Part shown: one piece after another, positions 2,797 through 25,581 of the stretch
How positions within the stretch are numbered: position 1 is the first letter of the stretch
How the letters are laid out: each line of letters opens with the position of its first letter
Source of the DNA: a virus
Taxonomy: Duplodnaviria; Heunggongvirae; Uroviricota; Caudoviricetes
Strand: one strand, 5' to 3'
DNA: 64,000 nucleotides
IMG/VR virus record: IMGVR_UViG_3300037067_008064
Span: 1 to 64,000 of that record
Program-made: the position numbers and the translations under genes
The notes under the pieces: model-generated
What the model was told of the DNA's origin: nothing
The model's input: the letters and a program-made list of their open reading frames with translations, nothing else
Database searches by the model: none

Positions 2797-3054
2797 AAAT
2801 TAATTATAATATTACTGGTGCGACTTTTAGATTTCAATAGTTCTCATGTGCACTAAAACCTTCTGAGTGAAACTCGCCAATGCTGCAGACATTGTTTTAC
2901 CTATCATAACAACAAGTTTTGAGTAATATTATAATTGCTGATTTTGTAAGATTCGAACTTAACTTCCACTGTACAGCCGCGTACCGTGTTGAATGACGTG
3001 CCTCCTTTACACTACAAAATCAAAATAAAATTGAGAAAATTAATAAGAGGATTT

Positions 3055-3129
3055 CCAGTATTACTACTGTTTGATAGGACTTGAACCTATAACTGTTTGT
3101 TTAATAGACAAATGCGTTACCATTACGCG
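3055..3129 (-). tRNA. tRNA-like, unresolved (anticodon loop CTATTAA; acceptor does not pair)
   Basis: Good D-arm GCGT-AATGGTA-ACGC, anticodon stem TTTGT/ACAAA and T-arm ATAGGTTCAAGTCCTAT, but no 7-bp acceptor could be formed. Confidence 0.25.
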
Positions 3130-3161
3130 ACGATGAAACTCTTATAGTTACTACAATTTTG

Positions 3162-3321: not shown

Positions 3322-3356
3322 AAGTTAAAACTAAGAAAATTAAAAAGAATGTTTTT

Positions 3357-3430
3357 TGGTGCTTGATGCGGGAATTTAACCCGCGCCTATTGATTTGAAT
3401 TCAATTGCTCTAACGTAGAGCTAATTAAGC
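3357..3430 (-). tRNA. tRNA with anticodon TCA (reads UGA; opal-suppressor or Trp-UCA type), genomically encoded CCA
   Basis: GCTC..GAGC D-arm; anticodon arm ATTGA-ATTCAAA-TCAAT; T-arm GCGGGTTAAATTCCCGC; 3' end ...ATCAAGC-A-CCA. Confidence 0.5.
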
Positions 3431-3460
3431 GATGTAATCCTTTAAATCACTATAGTTTTG

Positions 3461-3820: not shown

Positions 3821-3972
3821 ATTTAAACAGAGAAAATTAGTATGAGCATTTTTTAAACTTCTTCCCCGAGTTTTGTTTTAAATAATGGTGGGGAAGGCTG
3901 GTTACGAGCCAACTATTTTACATTTTCAATTGTATTGTTTTACGATGAAACTCATTATATTACTACTGTTTG

Positions 3973-4362: not shown

Positions 4363-4483
4363 TCCATATTAAAATCTAATTTTATCGTACATTTTCTTCT
4401 ATCATACTTGACTAGAGCATCTTGCAGGTAGTCAGCCTACTGGCCTATAAAATTATTATGTGTCACAAAGAATTTGTACTCAG

Positions 4484-4567
4484 TGCACCCGGAGGGATTC
4501 GAACCCACGACTCTCGGTTTAAAAGACCGATACTCTATGCTTGCGCTGCCATCTGAGTTACGAGTGC
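4484..4567 (-). tRNA. tRNA-Lys (anticodon TTT) with an enlarged D-loop
   Basis: Acceptor GCACTCG/CGGGTGC; anticodon arm TCGGT-CTTTTAA-ACCGA; D-loop ~19 nt. Confidence 0.5.
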
Positions 4568-4573
4568 ATTAAT

Positions 4574-4634
4574 AATCTTTCTTAACTTTCTTTTATAGAT
4601 ACCTTTCAACGTAACATTAAAGTTAAGAAAGATT
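4574..4634. repeat. perfect 16-bp inverted repeat with 29-nt spacer
   Basis: AATCTTTCTTAACTTT ... AAAGTTAAGAAAGATT between tRNA-Lys and tRNA-Phe. Confidence 0.6.
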
Positions 4635-4673
4635 ATTTTAATTATTATACAACATGTCAAAGACCTTTTTAAT

Positions 4674-7207: not shown

Positions 7208-7869
7208 TGGAATAATGCTGAGAAATCAAGAAGTGCAATTTTTTTGGGAGTTTTTATCTCCCTGTATACTGGATTTTATAGAAAACTTGTACGCAATATA
7301 GGCGCCAAGTTACCGTCACCAAGGTGTACGACCCTAAGGTCTATTAGTCCGTATGTATACGGTTCTAGTAATTCATATATTTAACGAAGTATCACTTACT
7401 TTTACTACAGTATTTTTTATTATTTTTATTCATATGAGAACCTTATGATGCGTGGTTTTACGAACTTTCATTCGGGATATTTTAAGATGTGTGCCAAATC
7501 TTTTATAGTATAGGATTTATGTGTTCGTCCTATCAGGAATCTATAAACTCAGATATTGCTACCTTTCCTCTTTGTTAGTACATGATCGAACTTATTGTTT
7601 GGTTTTCTATTGCTAGAAAGGTTTGTTTTACGAAGTACCGCATGCAATCGCTACATATGTTTTATTTTCAAAATTTAAAGAACTTGTGAATGTAATATAA
7701 CAAAAATATGAAAAGGTTTTAAAATTTTTAAGTTAAAGAATGTTAAAATATTTTCTTATTTTATTTATATATTCAGTTTGGTTTTTTAGTAATATATCAG
7801 TTAATGTTAAATAGGTGTTTTTAATTAGTTTAGTGAAGTCTGTTAAAAGATATCTAATAAATAAAAGGT

Positions 7870-10905: not shown

Positions 10906-12093
10906 TTAATTTGTAATTTTTAATTTGTATTTGCAATATTCTACTTCTTTTGGGTCACCAGTACTTTTGCCTGGGTCATCTGATAATTTAACTGCCGGGA
11001 ACCATTCTCCATTAATAAAAACTTCAGAAATTTTAATTACCATATTTAATGGAGTAACCCCAACATCATTTGTAAAATTAGTTCCTATTCCAAAAGAACA
11101 ATTGATTTTATTTTCACAATATTTTTTTATGTTAACTGCTTTTTCTGGATTTAAATTATCACTAAAAATAATGGTTTTTGTTAATGGGTCTATTCCAAGC
11201 GATTTATAGTGTGTGATAGTTTTATCAGCAAATTCAATTGTATCACCACTATCTTGTCTTACACCATCAAATAATTTAACAAATTTTAAATTAAATGATT
11301 TATAAAATACATTACTTGTGTATGTATCTGATAAAGCAATACCAAGATCACCACCATATACTTTAATCCAATTATCAAGAGCTATTTCATTTGCTAAAGT
11401 ATATCCATATAAAGCGGCATGTATCATAAACCATAAATGTGCACATGTGCCTATTGGTTTTAAATCATATTTTTTAGCTAAAAATACATTACTTGTACCA
11501 ACAAAATTAGGTTGATAATTAGAAAAAATATGTACAATTCTATCATGATTTTCAAAAGAATATCTTCTCCTTTGCCCCATATCAACAAAGTTAACACCAT
11601 TATCTTTTAAAAATTTAGCTTTAGCCATATCTTTATTTAAAAGATTATGAAGATCAACTTGTTGTTCTGTCATTATAAAATATAATTCAGAAATTATTGA
11701 TAATAGAGGAACTTCCCACATCATGCATGTTGATAATGTACCTTCTAAAGTAATATCTAAATGTCCTCCTATTTGTTTTATTTTAATTTGACATGGATTA
11801 TATTTAAAAACTTTAAGAAAATTAACATATGTTTCTGGTAAATATTTAATTTTTTTAAGAAACAAATAATCAGTTTCCTTTAATGCTAATTCACTCATAT
11901 ATTGAACTTGTTTTCTTAATTCAATATCAAATTTCTTTGGAAATTCAATCTCTGATCTTGTAATAAATTTATATCTTACCTTAAGCTCCGGGAATATTTT
12001 TATTGTTGCCCATTGCATAGTAAATAAATATAAATCATTATCTAATATAGATTGTATAATTGGATTAATCATTTCCTTATGTATCAAAAACAT
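10906..12093 (-). CDS. nicotinate/nicotinamide phosphoribosyltransferase family protein (PncB/NadV-like)
   Basis: ~395 aa with a CSFGIGTNFTND block typical of the NAPRTase family. Sits next to pncA and nadE. Confidence 0.55.
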   Translation of the reverse strand: MFLIHKEMINPIIQSILDNDLYLFTMQWATIKIFPELKVRYKFITRSEIEFPKKFDIELRKQVQYMSELALKETDYLFLKKIKYLPETYVNFLKVFKYNPCQIKIKQIGGHLDITLEGTLSTCMMWEVPLLSIISELYFIMTEQQVDLHNLLNKDMAKAKFLKDNGVNFVDMGQRRRYSFENHDRIVHIFSNYQPNFVGTSNVFLAKKYDLKPIGTCAHLWFMIHAALYGYTLANEIALDNWIKVYGGDLGIALSDTYTSNVFYKSFNLKFVKLFDGVRQDSGDTIEFADKTITHYKSLGIDPLTKTIIFSDNLNPEKAVNIKKYCENKINCSFGIGTNFTNDVGVTPLNMVIKISEVFINGEWFPAVKLSDDPGKSTGDPKEVEYCKYKLKITN

Positions 12094-13457: not shown

Positions 13458-14276
13458 TTATAGTAAACAACATTTTGGTGCTACATTTCTTTTATGATCA
13501 GATTTACTAACCATTGTAGCAATTTTATCTAAATCATCATCTGATAAATTAAATTTCATTTTAAAATTGTTAAATGCTTTAACAATAGCAAAAACATTAG
13601 CATTATTTTTAACTATTAAATTATTAATTGCAAAATAGTTATCTAATATTTCATAACTATATCCAATTTCTTTTTCATCTGTTTGTTCATCATATAAACC
13701 AGCTGTCGGTGTTCTTCTGGCTATATGGTCTGGAAATCCATAACATTCACAAACTTGAAATACTTCACTTTTATATAAATCGGCAATAGGTTCAATATCT
13801 ACTCCTGAACCACCGTCACCACCTTTAGTAAAATAACCAATCTTATCTTCAATTAAATTAGTTGTACCGAGAACTAAATAATCAAGTTTTTCTGCTTTTG
13901 CTCTTAAAGCAGTCATTCGTATTCTTGCTTTAATATTAGGTATAGTTTTTAATTCTGTGGTTAAATCCATTTGTTCGACGAAATCATTTAAAGCATTACT
14001 TAAATATAATATATCATAGTTAATGTTTAAATAGTTTGCAACAAATTTAGCATCTTTAATATCTTCCGGCCTTTCATTTTCATTTGGTAAATACAATGGA
14101 AGTATTAATCCATATACATTATCAACTCCAACAGCTTCTACAGCTAACGCAGCAGTTGCTGTTGAATCTACACCACCAGATAATCCTATTACATATCCTT
14201 TAGCTCCAGAAGTTTTTAAATACTCTTTTAGCCAATCAACAATTTTTTGTATTTTATTTTCTGTTAAATTATTCAT
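13458..14276 (-). CDS. nadE: NH3-dependent NAD+ synthetase
   Basis: GYVIGLSGGVDS PP-loop. Start set at the ATG 14276 (MNNLTENK...); the track extension to 14333 begins with GTG. Confidence 0.7.
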   Translation of the reverse strand: MNNLTENKIQKIVDWLKEYLKTSGAKGYVIGLSGGVDSTATAALAVEAVGVDNVYGLILPLYLPNENERPEDIKDAKFVANYLNINYDILYLSNALNDFVEQMDLTTELKTIPNIKARIRMTALRAKAEKLDYLVLGTTNLIEDKIGYFTKGGDGGSGVDIEPIADLYKSEVFQVCECYGFPDHIARRTPTAGLYDEQTDEKEIGYSYEILDNYFAINNLIVKNNANVFAIVKAFNNFKMKFNLSDDDLDKIATMVSKSDHKRNVAPKCCLL

Positions 14277-14280
14277 TATT

Positions 14281-14448
14281 TTAAATATAATGTTTCTGAA
14301 ATCTTTCTTTATCTTCTTTTGATAACTTGCCACCTATCCAATCAAGAATACCTAATCTTTTATCTATCATCCATTGTTCTTTGCCTGATAACTTAAAAAA
14401 GTTTCTTGGCCTTTCAAAGGATTTTTCAAACATTTCTCTTTCTGTCAT
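14281..14448 (-). CDS. small hypothetical ORF (55 aa)
   Basis: ATG...TAA ORF (MTEREMFEKSF...) that fills the gap between nadE and the dCMP deaminase gene. Below the track threshold. Confidence 0.25.
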   Translation of the reverse strand: MTEREMFEKSFERPRNFFKLSGKEQWMIDKRLGILDWIGGKLSKEDKERFQKHYI

Positions 14449-18587: not shown

Positions 18588-19052
18588 TTATTTAATATTA
18601 AATGAACAATTATAAGAAGAATTAGAATATTCATTTGGATTATCAAAAGTCATTTTATAATTATCAGGTCTAGTTAATATTACTTTCATTTTATTATATT
18701 CTATTTCATCTAAAACTACAACTCTTCCATTAGTAAACAAACATTTAATTGTTCTGTTTTGACTATTAGATGCTTTAATAGCAATTATACCTTCTTCTCC
18801 ACTAAAATTAGCTAAATATTTTCCATATTCTAAAACAGAAATATAAATTGTTTTTTCAGAAAAAACAAATTTGAATATACAAAATGCTTTAGTTTCAATA
18901 ATATTAGAAAATGTTCCATCAACTACCATTGTTTTATATGATTCATTGGTTGGATCTCCAAAATCATCAACAAAATATTTGTTAGACCATTGAGCATTTA
19001 ATGATGTTGTGACCATTATAAACATTAATGCAATAAAAATAAAAGATTTCAT
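18588..19052 (-). CDS. secreted hypothetical protein
   Basis: N-terminal signal-peptide-like MKSFIFIALMFIMVTTSLNAQ. Followed on the minus strand by a hairpin plus T-run terminator. Confidence 0.45.
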   Translation of the reverse strand: MKSFIFIALMFIMVTTSLNAQWSNKYFVDDFGDPTNESYKTMVVDGTFSNIIETKAFCIFKFVFSEKTIYISVLEYGKYLANFSGEEGIIAIKASNSQNRTIKCLFTNGRVVVLDEIEYNKMKVILTRPDNYKMTFDNPNEYSNSSYNCSFNIK

Positions 19053-19245
19053 AATTTAATTTTTTAAAGTTATAGATAAATGTAAATAAATTATAAATTG
19101 TAATTACATAAAAAATGTTAAGATTTGTTAAATGAATATATAAATATAAGGTGTTAGTTTTATATTGGCTTATAAAACAACATTAGGATAGAAAATGCTG
19201 TCCACCTTATAAATTATATATCTTTAAAATAATGGATAGAAATCT

Positions 19246-19857
19246 ATGAAACAATTTCACTACGTTTATATAACAACTAATTTAATAAATGGAAAACAAT
19301 ATGTCGGTGACCATTCAACAGATAATTTAGATGATGATTATTTAGGAAGCGGTAAATTAATTTCCAAAGCTATTCATAAATATGGTAAACATAATTTTAA
19401 GAAAGAAATATTAGAATCTTTTAATATTAAAGAAAAAGCATTTATTACACAAGAAAAATATATTCAGAAATTTAATACTTTAATTCCAAATGGATATAAT
19501 ATAAGTCCTAAAGGTGGACATAATGTTAAAAATAGTTTATCTGAAGAAACTAAAAGGAAAATTAAAATTGGTAATACTGGTAAAAAACTTTCGGATGAAC
19601 ATAAATTAAAATTAAGTATTTCACATAAAGGAAAAATCTTTTCAGAAGAACATAGATTAAAATTAAGTAATTCAAAAAAAGGAAAAATACTTTCTGCAGA
19701 ACATAAATTAAAAGTAAGTGAATCACGAAAAGGAATAATATTTTCAGAAGAACAAAAAAGAAAAATTAAAGAATATCATTTAGGTAAAAAACATTCAGAA
19801 GAAACTAAAACCAAAATAAGTAATTCACTTAAATTAAATAGATATCATTCAATATAA
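19246..19857 (+). CDS. GIY-YIG homing endonuclease with NUMOD3-like repeats
   Basis: MKQFHYVYITTNLINGKQYVGDHS; repeated KLS.EHKLK.S units. The only plus-strand gene in this region, bracketed by terminators. Confidence 0.65.
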   Translation: MKQFHYVYITTNLINGKQYVGDHSTDNLDDDYLGSGKLISKAIHKYGKHNFKKEILESFNIKEKAFITQEKYIQKFNTLIPNGYNISPKGGHNVKNSLSEETKRKIKIGNTGKKLSDEHKLKLSISHKGKIFSEEHRLKLSNSKKGKILSAEHKLKVSESRKGIIFSEEQKRKIKEYHLGKKHSEETKTKISNSLKLNRYHSI

Positions 19858-19860
19858 CAC

Positions 19861-19890
19861 AAAAAAAGGCTTAGAATTCTAAGCCTTTTA
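19861..19890. terminator. bidirectional intrinsic terminator
   Basis: AAAAAAAGGCTTAGAATTCTAAGCCTTTT sits between the convergent GIY-YIG (+) and Ro60-like (-) genes. Confidence 0.6.
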
Positions 19891-19910
19891 ATTTATAAAA
19901 TTTTAATTTA

Positions 19911-21614
19911 TTATATGTTAATTTGATTGATAGCTTTGATAACAACATTAGGATCTAATTCTACCTTTTTAGCGGTTTCATAAATATCTTTAGAGTAACC
20001 AAAGATACGGAATACTTTATTACCTGCTTTCATAACAGTTGGGCCGTAACCTACTATATTAACAAGGTAAATATATGGTGTACCATATTTAGCAGAATAT
20101 GCTTTAAGCATTCCTTCTACTCTTCCACCATCTTGTTCATCTGTTATAATGATAATACGGTCGAATTTTTCATTTGATCTTAAGAATAAGCTGAAAATTT
20201 GTGAATAATCAGTTCCGTGTCCAACACGACCATTATAACCCATGAAATGTTTCTTAAGAGTATTAATGGTATCATTTGGATTATAGCCAATAATTCTTTC
20301 ACAGCCTGATGCAAAGTGATAAACTGGTGAGTTCATAGCTTTGGTGAATGTTGCCGCAACAAGTGCAGCTTTTTCACATGGTCTTTTATTAATTGAACAT
20401 GCTTTTCCACCTTTTTCAATTTGGACGCCACTACCATATCCACCTTCCATTGAACCTGATGTATCAAATACAACGGCAGTTCTTCCTTCTGGGAATAATC
20501 CTACTAAGTTTGGAATTGAACGTTCATATGCAATGTCAAGAGCCTTTGCAACCTTTGACAAATATTTATTTGAGTTAAATTCAAGTAACATTATTTCTAA
20601 TGCTAAATCAATTTGATGTGGCCATACTAAAGATTTTTGTATGAACTTATCTTCTATTAAAAGATCACATGCGCTATCTACTAATTCAGCGTTATCAGTA
20701 TTAAGAATATTTCTCATATTTCTTAATAATGCAAGATAACCGATCTTTTTCTTTGCAATAAGTTCAGTGAAGTTTTCTGTCTTAAGTTCATTAAGTTTTT
20801 CTTCAGCTGCTTCTGATGTAAGTTCACCTGATTTAAAAGCTTCAGAAACTGTTTTACCAGCTTCAGTATTCTTGTCTTCAACAGTATTAAATTGCTTTAA
20901 TAAACCTAATACAAGAGCACGTAATGCAGAAATTCTTACAAATACTTTTCCTTCTTTTTCATATGATTCAGGTAGTTGAGCAGCATACTTTGTACCTTTT
21001 ACAGCTTTTTGATAATCTGCTATTTCAACTTCAATGAATCCATTTTTCTTTGATTCAATAGGGTGAACTAAGTTAACAACGTCAACTAAAGAAACACTTC
21101 TATTTTTTGCTTGATATTTAGCCAATTCATACATATCTGCATCTTCAATTGCAAGCGCAAATCCTTTCTTAATAGCATTTGGAATTGGGGCATTAGCTCC
21201 ATTCTTTGCTAGATAACATGCTAAAATTTCTAACATGTCATCAATACGATAGACAATACCACCAGCATTTTCTTTACGTGATCTTTTTGAGTAGAATTTC
21301 TTTCCTAACTCGTCACCTGCAAAATGCTTTAAAAGTTCAACAGCTCCTCTATGTGTAACTGTTCTTTGTCCAAAAACAGTACGGGCATAAATAAGAGCTT
21401 TAGCTGCAAAAAGCTTATTTTTCTTTGCAACTTCATTAAGGACTTGAGCAAAACGTATATCACGTTCTGATTCCTTTTCATAAAATGTGTTTTCTAAACC
21501 GGTGGCAAGGATTCCGATTAATTCGTTTTCTGGTTTTTGTGTAAAACCTGCGCCACCTTGATGTGTTACAGTTGGTTGAATTTCACTAACTGGTTTTTGA
21601 TTGTACTTTGCCAT
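19911..21614 (-). CDS. Ro60/TROVE-domain protein with C-terminal von Willebrand A (MIDAS) domain
   Basis: N-terminal VTHQGGAGF...TFYEKESE fits the TROVE start. C-terminal AVVFDTSGSM is a DxSxS MIDAS motif. AAAGGAGGT ribosome-binding site 7 nt before the ATG. Confidence 0.55.
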   Translation of the reverse strand: MAKYNQKPVSEIQPTVTHQGGAGFTQKPENELIGILATGLENTFYEKESERDIRFAQVLNEVAKKNKLFAAKALIYARTVFGQRTVTHRGAVELLKHFAGDELGKKFYSKRSRKENAGGIVYRIDDMLEILACYLAKNGANAPIPNAIKKGFALAIEDADMYELAKYQAKNRSVSLVDVVNLVHPIESKKNGFIEVEIADYQKAVKGTKYAAQLPESYEKEGKVFVRISALRALVLGLLKQFNTVEDKNTEAGKTVSEAFKSGELTSEAAEEKLNELKTENFTELIAKKKIGYLALLRNMRNILNTDNAELVDSACDLLIEDKFIQKSLVWPHQIDLALEIMLLEFNSNKYLSKVAKALDIAYERSIPNLVGLFPEGRTAVVFDTSGSMEGGYGSGVQIEKGGKACSINKRPCEKAALVAATFTKAMNSPVYHFASGCERIIGYNPNDTINTLKKHFMGYNGRVGHGTDYSQIFSLFLRSNEKFDRIIIITDEQDGGRVEGMLKAYSAKYGTPYIYLVNIVGYGPTVMKAGNKVFRIFGYSKDIYETAKKVELDPNVVIKAINQINI

Positions 21615-22023
21615 AATTTGACCTCCTTTTACTATTGGTTATTTTTATTTTACCCAAAGAAACTTTTTTACTACCGTTACCGGAGAAAGCTTCCCTGAAA
21701 TTTTAATTCAAGTTATATAATATTTTCACTGAGAAAATTGAAAGAGCTTGTGTTTGAAAACAGAATTTCGATGAAACTCTTATCGTTACTACAGTAATTT
21801 CTTTTTTAATTTAATGATACAAATATAATCTATATATTATCGCTTGAGACGAAAGATTTGTTAAGTAATGTTAAACTCTTCAAGTTCATTTAGATTAATA
21901 TTTTCCATTATAATAAAAATATAAAATGAAAAATTTCTTAAATTATCTTCAAAAAATTGATGTTTTAATTTTCTTTCTAATATTTTATTAGATGTATCAA
22001 TATAATTATCTAAACTATTCATA

Positions 22024-22254
22024 TTATAATTTTATCCACCTAATTAATAATTGTGCTGACATAACAGCTTCAAAATCCGCATTCCCCATATCTGATACAG
22101 GTATTTCAAAATTTATTGTTGGAACATCAGCTTGATTAATATTTGTATAATAATATGCTATGCCTTCTCTAATATAGCTAAAATATGCCCAAGGTTTTTG
22201 TTTATATAATTCTTTTTTAATATCATTAAGTTCCATCTTATTCGTCTTTATCAA
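22024..22254 (-). CDS. hypothetical protein
   Basis: ORF only. Confidence 0.3.
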   Translation of the reverse strand: MIKTNKMELNDIKKELYKQKPWAYFSYIREGIAYYYTNINQADVPTINFEIPVSDMGNADFEAVMSAQLLIRWIKL

Positions 22255-22459
22255 AAGTTAATTTATATTCAAATGATGGGGGTAATTCATCTATTTGTCT
22301 TCCATCTTCAGCATCACGTAATTCAAATTCTTTACCATTAATAGTTACAAGAGTACTATAAGAACCAAATGCTATAGAAATACCCATTTTTTCCATAATA
22401 CTAAAAAATTCATCTAAATGTTTGAATTCTGCTGCTTCTCTTTTTAATCTCCAAGCCAT
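22238..22459 (-). CDS. hypothetical protein
   Basis: ORF only. Confidence 0.3.
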   Translation of the reverse strand: MAWRLKREAAEFKHLDEFFSIMEKMGISIAFGSYSTLVTINGKEFELRDAEDGRQIDELPPSFEYKLTFDKDE

Positions 22460-22469
22460 ATTGTTTATA

Positions 22470-22688
22470 TTATTTTAATTTATTTTTTGCTATTTGATAT
22501 GGTAATTCAATTGCCAACCAATTTATATATTCATGAATCGCCTGCTTAGCTACTTCACATTGTAAATATGATAAACAAGATATACTACCAGGTTTAGAAT
22601 CTCTTAAAATTAATTTATAAATAGGATTACTTTGAATTATGCTTTCATATTTATCTTGAGGTACTATAAGATATATTTCTTTTATCAT
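22470..22688 (-). CDS. hypothetical protein
   Basis: ORF only. Confidence 0.3.
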   Translation of the reverse strand: MIKEIYLIVPQDKYESIIQSNPIYKLILRDSKPGSISCLSYLQCEVAKQAIHEYINWLAIELPYQIAKNKLK

Positions 22689-22689
22689 A

Positions 22690-23079
22690 TTATCTTAATT
22701 TGTTTTCACCCCATCCTGGGTACCATTGTTCTAGTGGTTTAATTGCCAAATTAATTATTTTATCATTAATTTCTTTATGAATGTTTAATCCTTCTATAGT
22801 TTTAAGAGCTTGATCAAATTGATCTATAGAATCTGTATTATTTGCATTAACTACTAATACATATTTTTTATTTATTATTCTATCAGGATATGTCCAACCA
22901 GCCTTAGTATTATTATTTCCTAATACTTTAACCATAGGTGTTTTATTGCCATAACCATCATCATGATTTTCATCTATTACAAGAATTTTACCTTCTTTAA
23001 AATCAGGTGAATGTCCTAACACACCTATATATAGAATTTCATTTCCAATATCTAAAGGATTTCCAAAATAATCTTTCAT
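22690..23079 (-). CDS. hypothetical protein
   Basis: ORF; tightly packed with neighbours. Confidence 0.4.
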   Translation of the reverse strand: MKDYFGNPLDIGNEILYIGVLGHSPDFKEGKILVIDENHDDGYGNKTPMVKVLGNNNTKAGWTYPDRIINKKYVLVVNANNTDSIDQFDQALKTIEGLNIHKEINDKIINLAIKPLEQWYPGWGENKLR

Positions 23080-25062: not shown

Positions 25063-25329
25063 AATTGATATTTTTTTGATAGATTCATGAACCTCTATAT
25101 GTAGGTAAACGTCTTCCTTCGCTGTTTATCCTTGGGCCAATCTTCCACTCGAGTGTTACCCAACCTACTCATCATACTTTCACTAACCAATAGTTAATCA
25201 TATGTACTTAGCGTCTTCCAATTTCCGCCACAAAAAAATATCAAAGATCAATTGATTGAGAAAATTTAATTGAGTCTTTTGTTTATAGACCATAATACGA
25301 TGAAACTCAATTGTTACTACAATCATTTG

Positions 25330-25487: not shown

Positions 25488-25581
25488 AGTTAAAACTGAG
25501 AATTTCAATAAGAGCATTTCTTTAGTCAGATTTTCAAAGTCAGATTGATACGATGTAACTCTATATTTTACTACAGTTTAG

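Follow-up and report, generated by a model that had tools for sequence, protein, structure and literature searches.

A giant phage encodes a Ro60 homolog and, probably, Y-RNA-like small RNAs that share a conserved scaffold

Results

A Ro60 gene in a giant phage

We analyzed a stretch of viral DNA of 64,000 nucleotides (nt), positions 1 to 64,000 of IMG/VR record IMGVR_UViG_3300037067_008064 and hereafter the window, in which a minus-strand rsr-like gene encodes a homolog of the ring protein Ro60. A conserved non-coding leader ahead of this gene holds one of seven window copies of a structured element that we term the scaffold, all seven being on the minus strand (Table 1). PHROG matches show that the window is phage DNA, with tail sheath, clamp loader and thymidylate synthase among its genes, and a homolog search placed its Ro60 gene on a 316-kb contig, that of a giant phage. 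These matches do not establish the T4-superfamily membership assumed in a first-pass annotation of the window. In GenBank, blastn of the window returned only segB-like and tRNA pieces and no close relative, and tblastn with a 1020-aa window open reading frame (ORF) found no match among phages.

The first-pass annotation had assigned the gene to Ro60 from its TROVE-type N-terminus and C-terminal vWA domain, an identity that our searches bear out. The 567-aa product has the N-terminus quoted there and the motif DTSGS, at residues 384-388, the MIDAS (metal-ion-dependent adhesion site) of the vWA domain. In PDB sequences, phmmer matched the Ro60 of Thermus phage phiLo (9KOP/9L5Y; E 8e-15) across both the TROVE and vWA parts, in two colinear stretches (residues 15-192 and 283-552), with DTSGSM of the window protein aligned with DVSGSM of phiLo Ro60. 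PHROG 850, 'RNA-binding protein', matches over the full length (1e-26). Metagenomic homologs number more than 700; among the best 120, identity to the window protein is 58-74% and nearly all carry a precomputed PF05731 assignment, and D384, S386 and S388 are invariant across 22 homologs. When an AlphaFold2 model (pLDDT 78) was compared with the PDB by Foldseek, the best 12 matches were all Ro60 structures (phage, Xenopus and human; full length, TM 0.35-0.6), and isolated vWA domains ranked after them. The Pfam TROVE profile itself (PF05731) matched residues 43-338 below its gathering score (21.5 vs 23 bits, E 1.5e-4), and an NCBIfam search of the protein gave no match. Membership in the Ro60 family therefore rests on the phiLo structures, PHROG 850, the homologs and the fold search. 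Together these identify the ORF as a Ro60 homolog with TROVE and vWA/MIDAS parts, having the Ro60 fold of an alpha-helical HEAT-repeat ring plus vWA domain, of which the ring itself is predicted.

Phage Ro60 is not new. YrlA-like RNAs adjoin Ro60 in 22 phages (Chen et al. 2014, PMC4201824), TROVE proteins occur in jumbo phages (Iyer et al. 2021, PMC7824862), and structures of the phiLo Ro60-Yrl complex were published in 2025 (PMC12135203). By tblastn, we found Ro60 in 48 GenBank phage records. The priority that the first-pass annotation had claimed for a phage Ro60 ribonucleoprotein (RNP) thus does not hold, jumbo phages included.

A covarying RNA scaffold upstream of Ro60

The region upstream of the gene (21615-22023) had been described as free of ORFs. 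This stands for a conserved non-coding block of about 250 nt (~21615-21866) and fails beyond it, where a 53-aa ATG ORF is present. This ORF has no PHROG match, and its coding status is uncertain because the closest relative lacks a counterpart. The ~250-nt leader is about 95% conserved although the Ro60 protein of the relative is only 74% identical.

A repeat had also been reported here, with one copy upstream of Ro60 and the others only at tRNA 3′ flanks. The repeat is non-random, with GAGTTTCATCG present in four exact and two one-mismatch copies in the window (0.43 expected) and TGTAGTAA-N-GAGTTTCAT in three (0 expected), and one copy does lie upstream of Ro60 (21769-21793). Among the six other full copies, four lie 2-3 nt past a tRNA 3′ end. 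Rather than a bare sequence motif, however, the repeat forms the 5′ half of a structured element of 68 nt at 21728-21795.

We derived the architecture of this element from the minus-strand layout of the window repeats and then from the regions upstream of 77 IMG/VR Ro60 homologs (clade 1, L001-L077), Ro60 loci being counted among the matches listed (80 per list). The consensus reads 5′-NNNG-U-RG-U-AA(G)...(P2 5′ strand)-UUACUUCG-(variable insert)-A-rich-(P2 3′ strand)...AAUUUUC-Y-C-NNN-3′. Helix P1 joins the two ends through four variable pairs, a bulged U, an R-Y and a G-C pair, a second bulged U and an internal loop (UAA / AAUUUU). The second helix, P2, covaries freely and leads to a conserved single-stranded junction, UUACUUCG (UUUCAUCG in the window phage), followed by a variable cargo that ranges from nothing through a hairpin or a tRNA-like domain, arranged as in tRNA or as in YrlA, to a whole tRNA. 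Sequence is conserved in loops and bulges only, with helix sequence free to vary.

Compensatory change supports both helices. When 30 copies with short inserts were aligned by MAFFT without constraints, P1 and P2 were 90% paired and 12 of 15 pairs showed compensatory changes; none of 500 shuffles reached the observed values, and slid registers were 45-55% paired. These 30 copies had been chosen with a pairing filter, which did not include the R6-Y pair. Across 93 distinct copies aligned by covariance model, pairing was 91.5%, the outer pairs used all four Watson-Crick types, and R6-Y was AU in 63, GC in 29 and GU in one, with zero mismatches. A second clade of Ro60 (clade 2) supplied 64 distinct copies independent of the model, and these were 91.8% paired, again with all four Watson-Crick types at the outer pairs and an A6-U to G6-C ratio of 54:9. 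A permutation test that set each copy's own 5′ half against the downstream region of another locus gave P = 2e-10. P2 often extends towards P1, by inspection. We also considered a G11-U pair extending P1, which covariation rules against (unpaired in 41/93 and 45/64 cases). Minimum free energy (MFE) folds contain P1 and P2 in most window copies, including the Ro60-proximal one; compared with the relative at 74% protein identity, that copy is identical save three substitutions and an 8-nt indel within the variable insert.

A scan of the window with a covariance model of the scaffold, R1, with filters off, returned the seven copies of Table 1. As a specificity control, R1 had no match in 727 kb of bacterial and archaeal DNA pre-selected for the 15-base 5′ motif. 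That motif occurs in 120 stretches among 185,579 cellular genomes, none of them with Ro60, and R1 matched none of the 100 tested; these stretches are chance matches. Among the first 100 viral stretches with the motif, about 65 lack the full element. Our literature searches found no description of such an element. Judged by its covariation, the scaffold is a structured RNA, absent from Rfam at gathering score.

The scaffold follows Ro60 across phage lineages

At the 77 loci of clade 1, to which the window's Ro60 belongs, every one of 134 R1 matches is on the Ro60 strand, as are 74 of 74 in the second clade, whose Ro60 proteins are 35-38% identical to the window protein. Many clade 2 copies begin 33-134 nt past the Ro60 stop codon. 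The Salmonella rsr-yrlBA operon has the same order, with RNA genes after rsr. Over 59 non-redundant loci, scaffold counts per kb upstream of Ro60 were 50/30/10/1/5/3, with 6 downstream, whereas tRNA counts at the same loci were flat (46/70/85/60/53/50, with 122 downstream). A copy lies within 1.5 kb upstream of Ro60 at 43 of 53 loci.

The neighborhood extends to distant phages. In megaphage LR745206 (634 kb, Ro60 31% identical), the sole match in 41 kb lies 394 nt upstream of Ro60. In the complete 151-kb genome of the crAss-like phage csAssE-Sib (OR575929), the only two matches lie less than 500 nt upstream of a gene annotated 'Ro sixty-related protein', whose product is 27.5% identical to window Ro60, and the other tRNA cluster of this genome, away from Ro60, has no scaffold copy. 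One of its matches is weak (18 bits; L200 11643-11739, equivalent to OR575929 72733-72829), contains the annotated tRNA-Tyr and is directly upstream of the Ro60 gene. The density profile and these two genomes therefore indicate that the association tracks Ro60 and not tRNA clusters, and that it spans unrelated phage lineages. About 280 matches in all adjoin Ro60 genes of the two clades, the megaphage and the crAss-like phage, without exception on the Ro60 strand. A single pattern scan of IMG/VR returned 414 Ro60-encoding stretches.

Two known RNAs were seen in these regions. Amid tRNAs and scaffold copies, a GOLLD RNA (L066 4489-4905, Rfam 277 bits) precedes a Ro60 homolog by 1.1 kb and shares its strand, and a transfer-messenger RNA gene (L195 2427-2793, minus strand, Rfam 60.6 bits) lies on a viral contig near tRNAs, scaffold copies and a Ro60 homolog.

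Cargo and tRNA context

Copies fall into 78 minimal ones (<=95 nt) and 68 of 96-160 nt. A T-loop-like motif is present in 59 of 147 distinct copies and an ARAGORN-detectable tRNA in 26. In some inserts tRNA-like elements keep the normal order, and their acceptor stems are often all A/U; others run T arm, closed acceptor-like stem with CCA, D arm, which is the YrlA order of Chen et al. (PMC4201824). Where tRNAs flank a copy, it most often begins 2-4 nt past the upstream tRNA and ends 5-9 nt before the following one, spacing that points to release by tRNA 3′- and 5′-end processing. No tRNA lies within 2 kb of the Ro60-proximal window copy. In eight relatives (L003, L008, L013, L021, L035, L052, L066, L067) a hairpin and U-run, identified by eye, separate the last copy from Ro60; no intrinsic terminator was found between copy and Ro60 ATG in the window.

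The tRNA enclosed by copy 3330-3456 scores 62.1 bits with the Rfam tRNA model and is called by ARAGORN only at a relaxed threshold, as tRNA-SeC(tca). From its anticodon, this tRNA(UCA) would read UGA and could be a suppressor or recoding tRNA; a similar one is at L125 1605-1730. Copy 3030-3157 (Rfam tRNA 47 bits, model positions 7-64) also contains a CAGUA-GUAA-UACUG hairpin. For copy 7217-7411, a pattern search gave 3/4 and 5/5 pairs and the MFE fold closes P1 and P2; its R1 score is only 20 bits, over a shorter span, because of the long insert. That 149-nt insert forms five hairpins and matched no Rfam family. Rfam also gave three minus-strand tRNA matches uncalled by ARAGORN, at 1112-1184 (49 bits), 3073-3131 (47, the module in copy 3030-3157) and 4492-4558 (31), the latter two lacking an acceptor stem (model positions 7-64 and 10-63), as well as a weak DUF2693-RNA match at 4483-4665.

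Relation to known Y RNAs

Compared with the features that mark YrlA, the Ro60-proximal window copy lies on the same strand as Ro60 and within 4 kb of it, 113 nt upstream of the ATG, and its 5′ and 3′ ends pair, by the covariation of P1 and P2. It lacks the tRNA-like domain, having a 22-nt insert; window copies 3827-3969 and 3030-3157 have part of such a domain. The scaffold resembles YrlA/YrlB (RF02553; PMC4201824) in its same-strand Ro60 neighbor, its end stem and a CG-containing single-stranded motif after the stem. Some members share the YrlA module of T arm, acceptor-like stem and D arm, and the minimal copies recall YrlB. The Rfam YrlA model gives significant though sub-threshold matches (34-38 bits, E 1e-5 to 5e-4) exactly at scaffold copies of relatives: L035 5573-5648 (33.8 bits, E 1.5e-5), L125 1818-1944 (36.1 bits over the full model, with Ro60 87 nt downstream) and L142 746-893 (33.7 bits). 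Unlike YrlA, the scaffold reaches at best 38 bits against a gathering score of 69, without a match in the window; it has UUACUUCG in place of GNCGAAN0-1G and its own UAGUAA/AAUUUUCUC stem core with bulged U's. It also differs from YrlA/YrlB in its seven copies in this window alone, in tRNA operons with fixed spacing, and in carrying varied cargo, even complete tRNAs.

The closest solved homolog is phiLo Ro60 (about 20% identity; Foldseek E 1e-15), where Y-like RNAs (Yrl1/Yrl2) likewise lie just upstream of a phage Ro60 gene and the Ro60-Yrl RNP engages host PNPase (PMC12135203). Compared by description, the phiLo Yrls differ in having been chosen for a CGAA motif together with a stem-bulge-stem fold, and no association with tRNA is described for them. 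In Deinococcus radiodurans Yrn1, the order of the tRNA-like part is opposite to that of YrlA (Chen et al. 2014, PMC4201824), and scaffold copies with a D/anticodon/T cargo at the acceptor position look analogous to it, going by that paper's description only. The best Rfam match on the Ro60-proximal copy is RAGATH-30 (RF03055; 19.4 bits against a gathering score of 59.5). The 5′ half of its consensus, GUAAAAAUAAGAAuUUAUCGAA, resembles GUAACGAUAAGAGUUUCAUCGAA of the window copy; its annotated structure is without P1 and P2, and it was not among the matches for five L035 scaffold copies. RAGATH-30 is at most a distant or partially modelled relative.

The Ro60 leader and flanking genes

Between the scaffold copy and the Ro60 ATG, the leader (MFE -17.7 kcal/mol, z -1.7) contains a CCG-GUAA-CGG hairpin that is CUC-GAAA-GAG in the 74%-identity relative, two compensatory pairs with the GNRA loop retained. 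The hexamer of the scaffold core, TAGTAA, occurs within 40 nt before the Ro60 ATG at 31 of 54 non-redundant loci (L001-L077) against 2% expected (P ~2e-38), its positions clustering at -7, -21 and -34, and clade 2 has another conserved motif, CCUUGUACUAA, directly before the ATG. Either may be an autoregulatory or initiation signal. The TTAACA of the candidate promoter is kept in L197. A recurrent TTTAACAAAA(T)TTTAACA-like sequence lies about 60-90 nt before the first scaffold copy in L008, L013, L021 and L052, with a window counterpart at ~21855-21866, and may be a shared promoter element of Ro60-proximal copies.

Past the Ro60 gene, a sub-threshold Rfam STnc40 match (19862-19914) proved to be merely the terminator hairpin. 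The convergent homing endonuclease gene has about 70% nucleotide identity to T4-type segB over 180 nt. NAD salvage genes (10906-12093 and 13458-14333, minus strand; nicotinamide/nicotinate phosphoribosyltransferase and NAD synthase) lie between two tRNA clusters; in L196, the closest relative, these genes come after Ro60.

Table 1. Positions of the Ro60 gene, scaffold copies and neighboring features in the window.
Feature	Position	Strand	Remarks
rsr-like gene, Ro60 (TROVE HEAT-repeat ring + C-terminal vWA domain), 567 aa	19911..21614	-	ORF and homology
MIDAS of the Ro60 vWA domain	D384-T-S386-G-S388		DxSxS present
Conserved leader, scaffold to ATG	21615..21727	-	Near-identical in L197/L198
AUAGUAA	21629-21635	-	Beside AAGGAGG Shine-Dalgarno
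Leader hairpin CCG-GUAA-CGG	21674-21683	-	Then second GUAGUAA, 21668-21674
Ro60-proximal scaffold copy, minimal, 68 nt, 22-nt insert	21728..21795	-	R1 53.1 bits, E 7e-10
Sequence of this copy	21795-21728	-	ACUG U AG UAAC GAU AAGAG UUUCAUCG aaauucuguuuucaaacacaag CUCUU UC AAUUUUCUC AGU
P1 5′ strand (ACUG, bulged U, AG) and UAGUAA core	21786..21795	-	Pairs 1-4, 6 and 7 covary with 3′ end
Junction UUUCAUCG (consensus UUACUUCG)	21769..21776	-	Occupies YrlA GNCGAA position; reads AUCGAAAU
P2 3′ strand CUCUU, internal loop, conserved AAUUUUCUC, P1 3′ strand CAGU	21728..21746	-	
Candidate sigma-70-like promoter TTAACA-17-GATAAT	21836..21864	-	Upstream of scaffold; 10/12 consensus match only
53-aa ATG ORF, uncertain coding status	21861..22022	-	ORF list
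Scaffold copy	25495..25577	-	R1 53.7 bits; 3 nt after tRNA-Gln, 7 nt before tRNA-Leu
Scaffold copy, minimal	25255..25323	-	R1 59.9 bits
Scaffold copy, 149-nt multi-hairpin insert	7217..7411	-	Ends 9 nt before tRNA-Thr
Scaffold copy, T-arm-like hairpin and closed acceptor-like stem CUUCCCC-A-CCA ... GGGGAAG	3827..3969	-	
Scaffold copy enclosing complete tRNA, encoded CCA, anticodon UCA (3360-3430)	3330..3456	-	R1 43.3 bits
Scaffold copy, tRNA-like D/anticodon/T module without acceptor stem (3073-3131)	3030..3157	-	R1 41.2 bits
Intrinsic terminator after rsr, bidirectional	19864..19889	-	Common to convergent GIY-YIG gene
GIY-YIG/NUMOD3 homing endonuclease	19246-19857	+	Convergent with Ro60 gene

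Discussion

Particles of Ro60 and Y RNA are conserved from bacteria to humans, and to our knowledge the roles of bacterial and viral Ro60 come from only a handful of systems. Because the scaffold RNA adjoins Ro60 genes in many unrelated phages, it is most likely a Y-RNA-like partner of Ro60, and we consider it probable that the phage studied here encodes, besides the ring protein, a battery of Y-RNA-like small RNAs on one conserved scaffold. In substance this supports the suggestion of the first-pass annotation that the leader may encode such a partner, insofar as a covarying RNA is the same-strand neighbor of Ro60 in divergent phages. The best-supported reading of the family is a divergent, modular Y-RNA-like class, for which genomic linkage suggests Ro60 binding, and the Ro60-proximal window copy is best read as a minimal, YrlB-like member. 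Most copies are probably transcribed within tRNA operons and freed by RNase Z/RNase P-type cuts, as their spacing suggests. Linkage and analogy with Yrn1, Salmonella YrlA/YrlB and phiLo Yrl1/2 suggest that phage Ro60 would dock on the conserved scaffold, while the cargo module may recruit or mimic tRNA-handling partners. During infection, the resulting RNP might divert RNA decay, repair or quality control; a cellular Ro60 with a tRNA-like partner has been proposed as an RNA repair platform (PMC7824862).

Several observations weigh against a Y-RNA-like partner. Rfam scans of the window, at gathering score or at E<=5-10, gave no Y_RNA or YrlA (nothing at E<=10 for metazoan Y RNA, RF00019, in 19000-23000 or 21600-21900), and gathering and permissive scans of window and relatives put no Y_RNA, ribozyme, riboswitch or above-threshold YrlA on the scaffold. 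GNCGAAN0-1G is not conserved either: only about 15% of copies have CGAA after UCG, which rules it out as a conserved Ro-binding signature, and canonical Y-RNA membership is not upheld. At E<=0.01, no copy was found at Ro60 loci L041, L042 and L076 or at 13 of 51 in clade 2, and 13 of 29 scaffold-bearing metagenomic stretches are on contig fragments on which Ro60 was not seen. Four of the seven window copies lie inside a tRNA cluster 12-18 kb from the Ro60 gene, and some copies enclose apparently functional tRNAs, which would fit a tRNA-precursor element too. Finally, the single-sequence folding energy of scaffold copies is unremarkable (z -1.6 to +0.9).

The main rival takes up these tRNA links. 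In it, the scaffold is a leader/trailer duplex or spacer of tRNA operons that guides the processing, folding or release timing of phage tRNAs, and its proximity to Ro60 merely reflects that the Ro60 gene lies in tRNA clusters. The fixed spacing to tRNA ends (2-4 and 5-9 nt), the T-loop-like motifs and detectable tRNAs, the whole CCA-bearing tRNAs within copies (window 3360-3430 and the csAssE-Sib tRNA-Tyr) and the position of most window copies in tRNA clusters would all follow. We nevertheless think it unlikely as a full account, since scaffold density is highest in the first kb beside Ro60 where tRNA density is flat, and in OR575929 both copies abut Ro60 while the distant tRNA cluster has none. 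About half of the copies, including the Ro60-proximal one in the window, are minimal and have no tRNA-like cargo, and the permuted YrlA-type modules cannot become tRNAs. Weakened mainly by the density profile and the crAss-like genome, this explanation may be complementary to a Y-RNA-like partnership, and a Ro60 that acts on scaffold-bearing tRNA precursors could reconcile the two.

A bolder extension, which strikes us as quite unlikely, makes the scaffold a general Ro60-docking cassette that loads whole tRNAs or tRNA mimics, such as the UGA-reading tRNA(UCA) at 3360-3430, into an RNP that gates, protects or sequesters tRNA precursors, with TAGTAA at the Ro60 start closing an autoregulatory loop. 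Were it true, the purpose may be timed release of suppressor tRNAs for stop-codon recoding or a decoy for host anticodon nucleases, and the cassette would differ from the plain exonuclease tethering of known Ro60-Y RNA systems.

It is improbable that the copy at 21728-21795 is a cis-acting 5′-untranslated-region element that regulates the Ro60 mRNA at the level of transcription or translation, as in autoregulation for instance, and not a separate small RNA. Its place 113 nt upstream of the ATG with no intervening intrinsic terminator in the window phage, the strong conservation of the leader relative to the protein, and the TAGTAA that recurs in the leader (21668-21674 and 21629-21635) and before the ATG at other loci are what such an element would show. 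However, the six other window copies, and most elsewhere, precede no ORF, the hairpin and U-run seen by eye part the last copy from Ro60 in eight relatives, and clade 2 copies lie downstream of the gene. There is only the slightest chance that the scaffold is a DNA-level repeat without RNA function, such as a miniature mobile element or homing-endonuclease target: an already disfavored idea to which the many dispersed copies and the GIY-YIG/NUMOD3 genes in the same regions (e.g., 19246-19857) might point, but which is at odds with the absolute strand bias (134/134 and 74/74), with compensatory changes that keep pairing, including G-U pairs valid on one strand only, with conservation confined to loops and bulges while helices vary freely, and with the fixed spacing to tRNA ends.

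Taken as Y-RNA-like, the scaffold indicates a large class, present at hundreds of viral metagenome loci and reaching no Rfam family's gathering score. Its sharply defined conserved core is an obvious candidate for a protein-binding site, and the natural cargo swaps, from none to a complete tRNA, offer a variant series for Ro60 recognition and cargo recruitment. The scaffold links phage Ro60 with tRNA operons in jumbo, mega and crAss-like phages.

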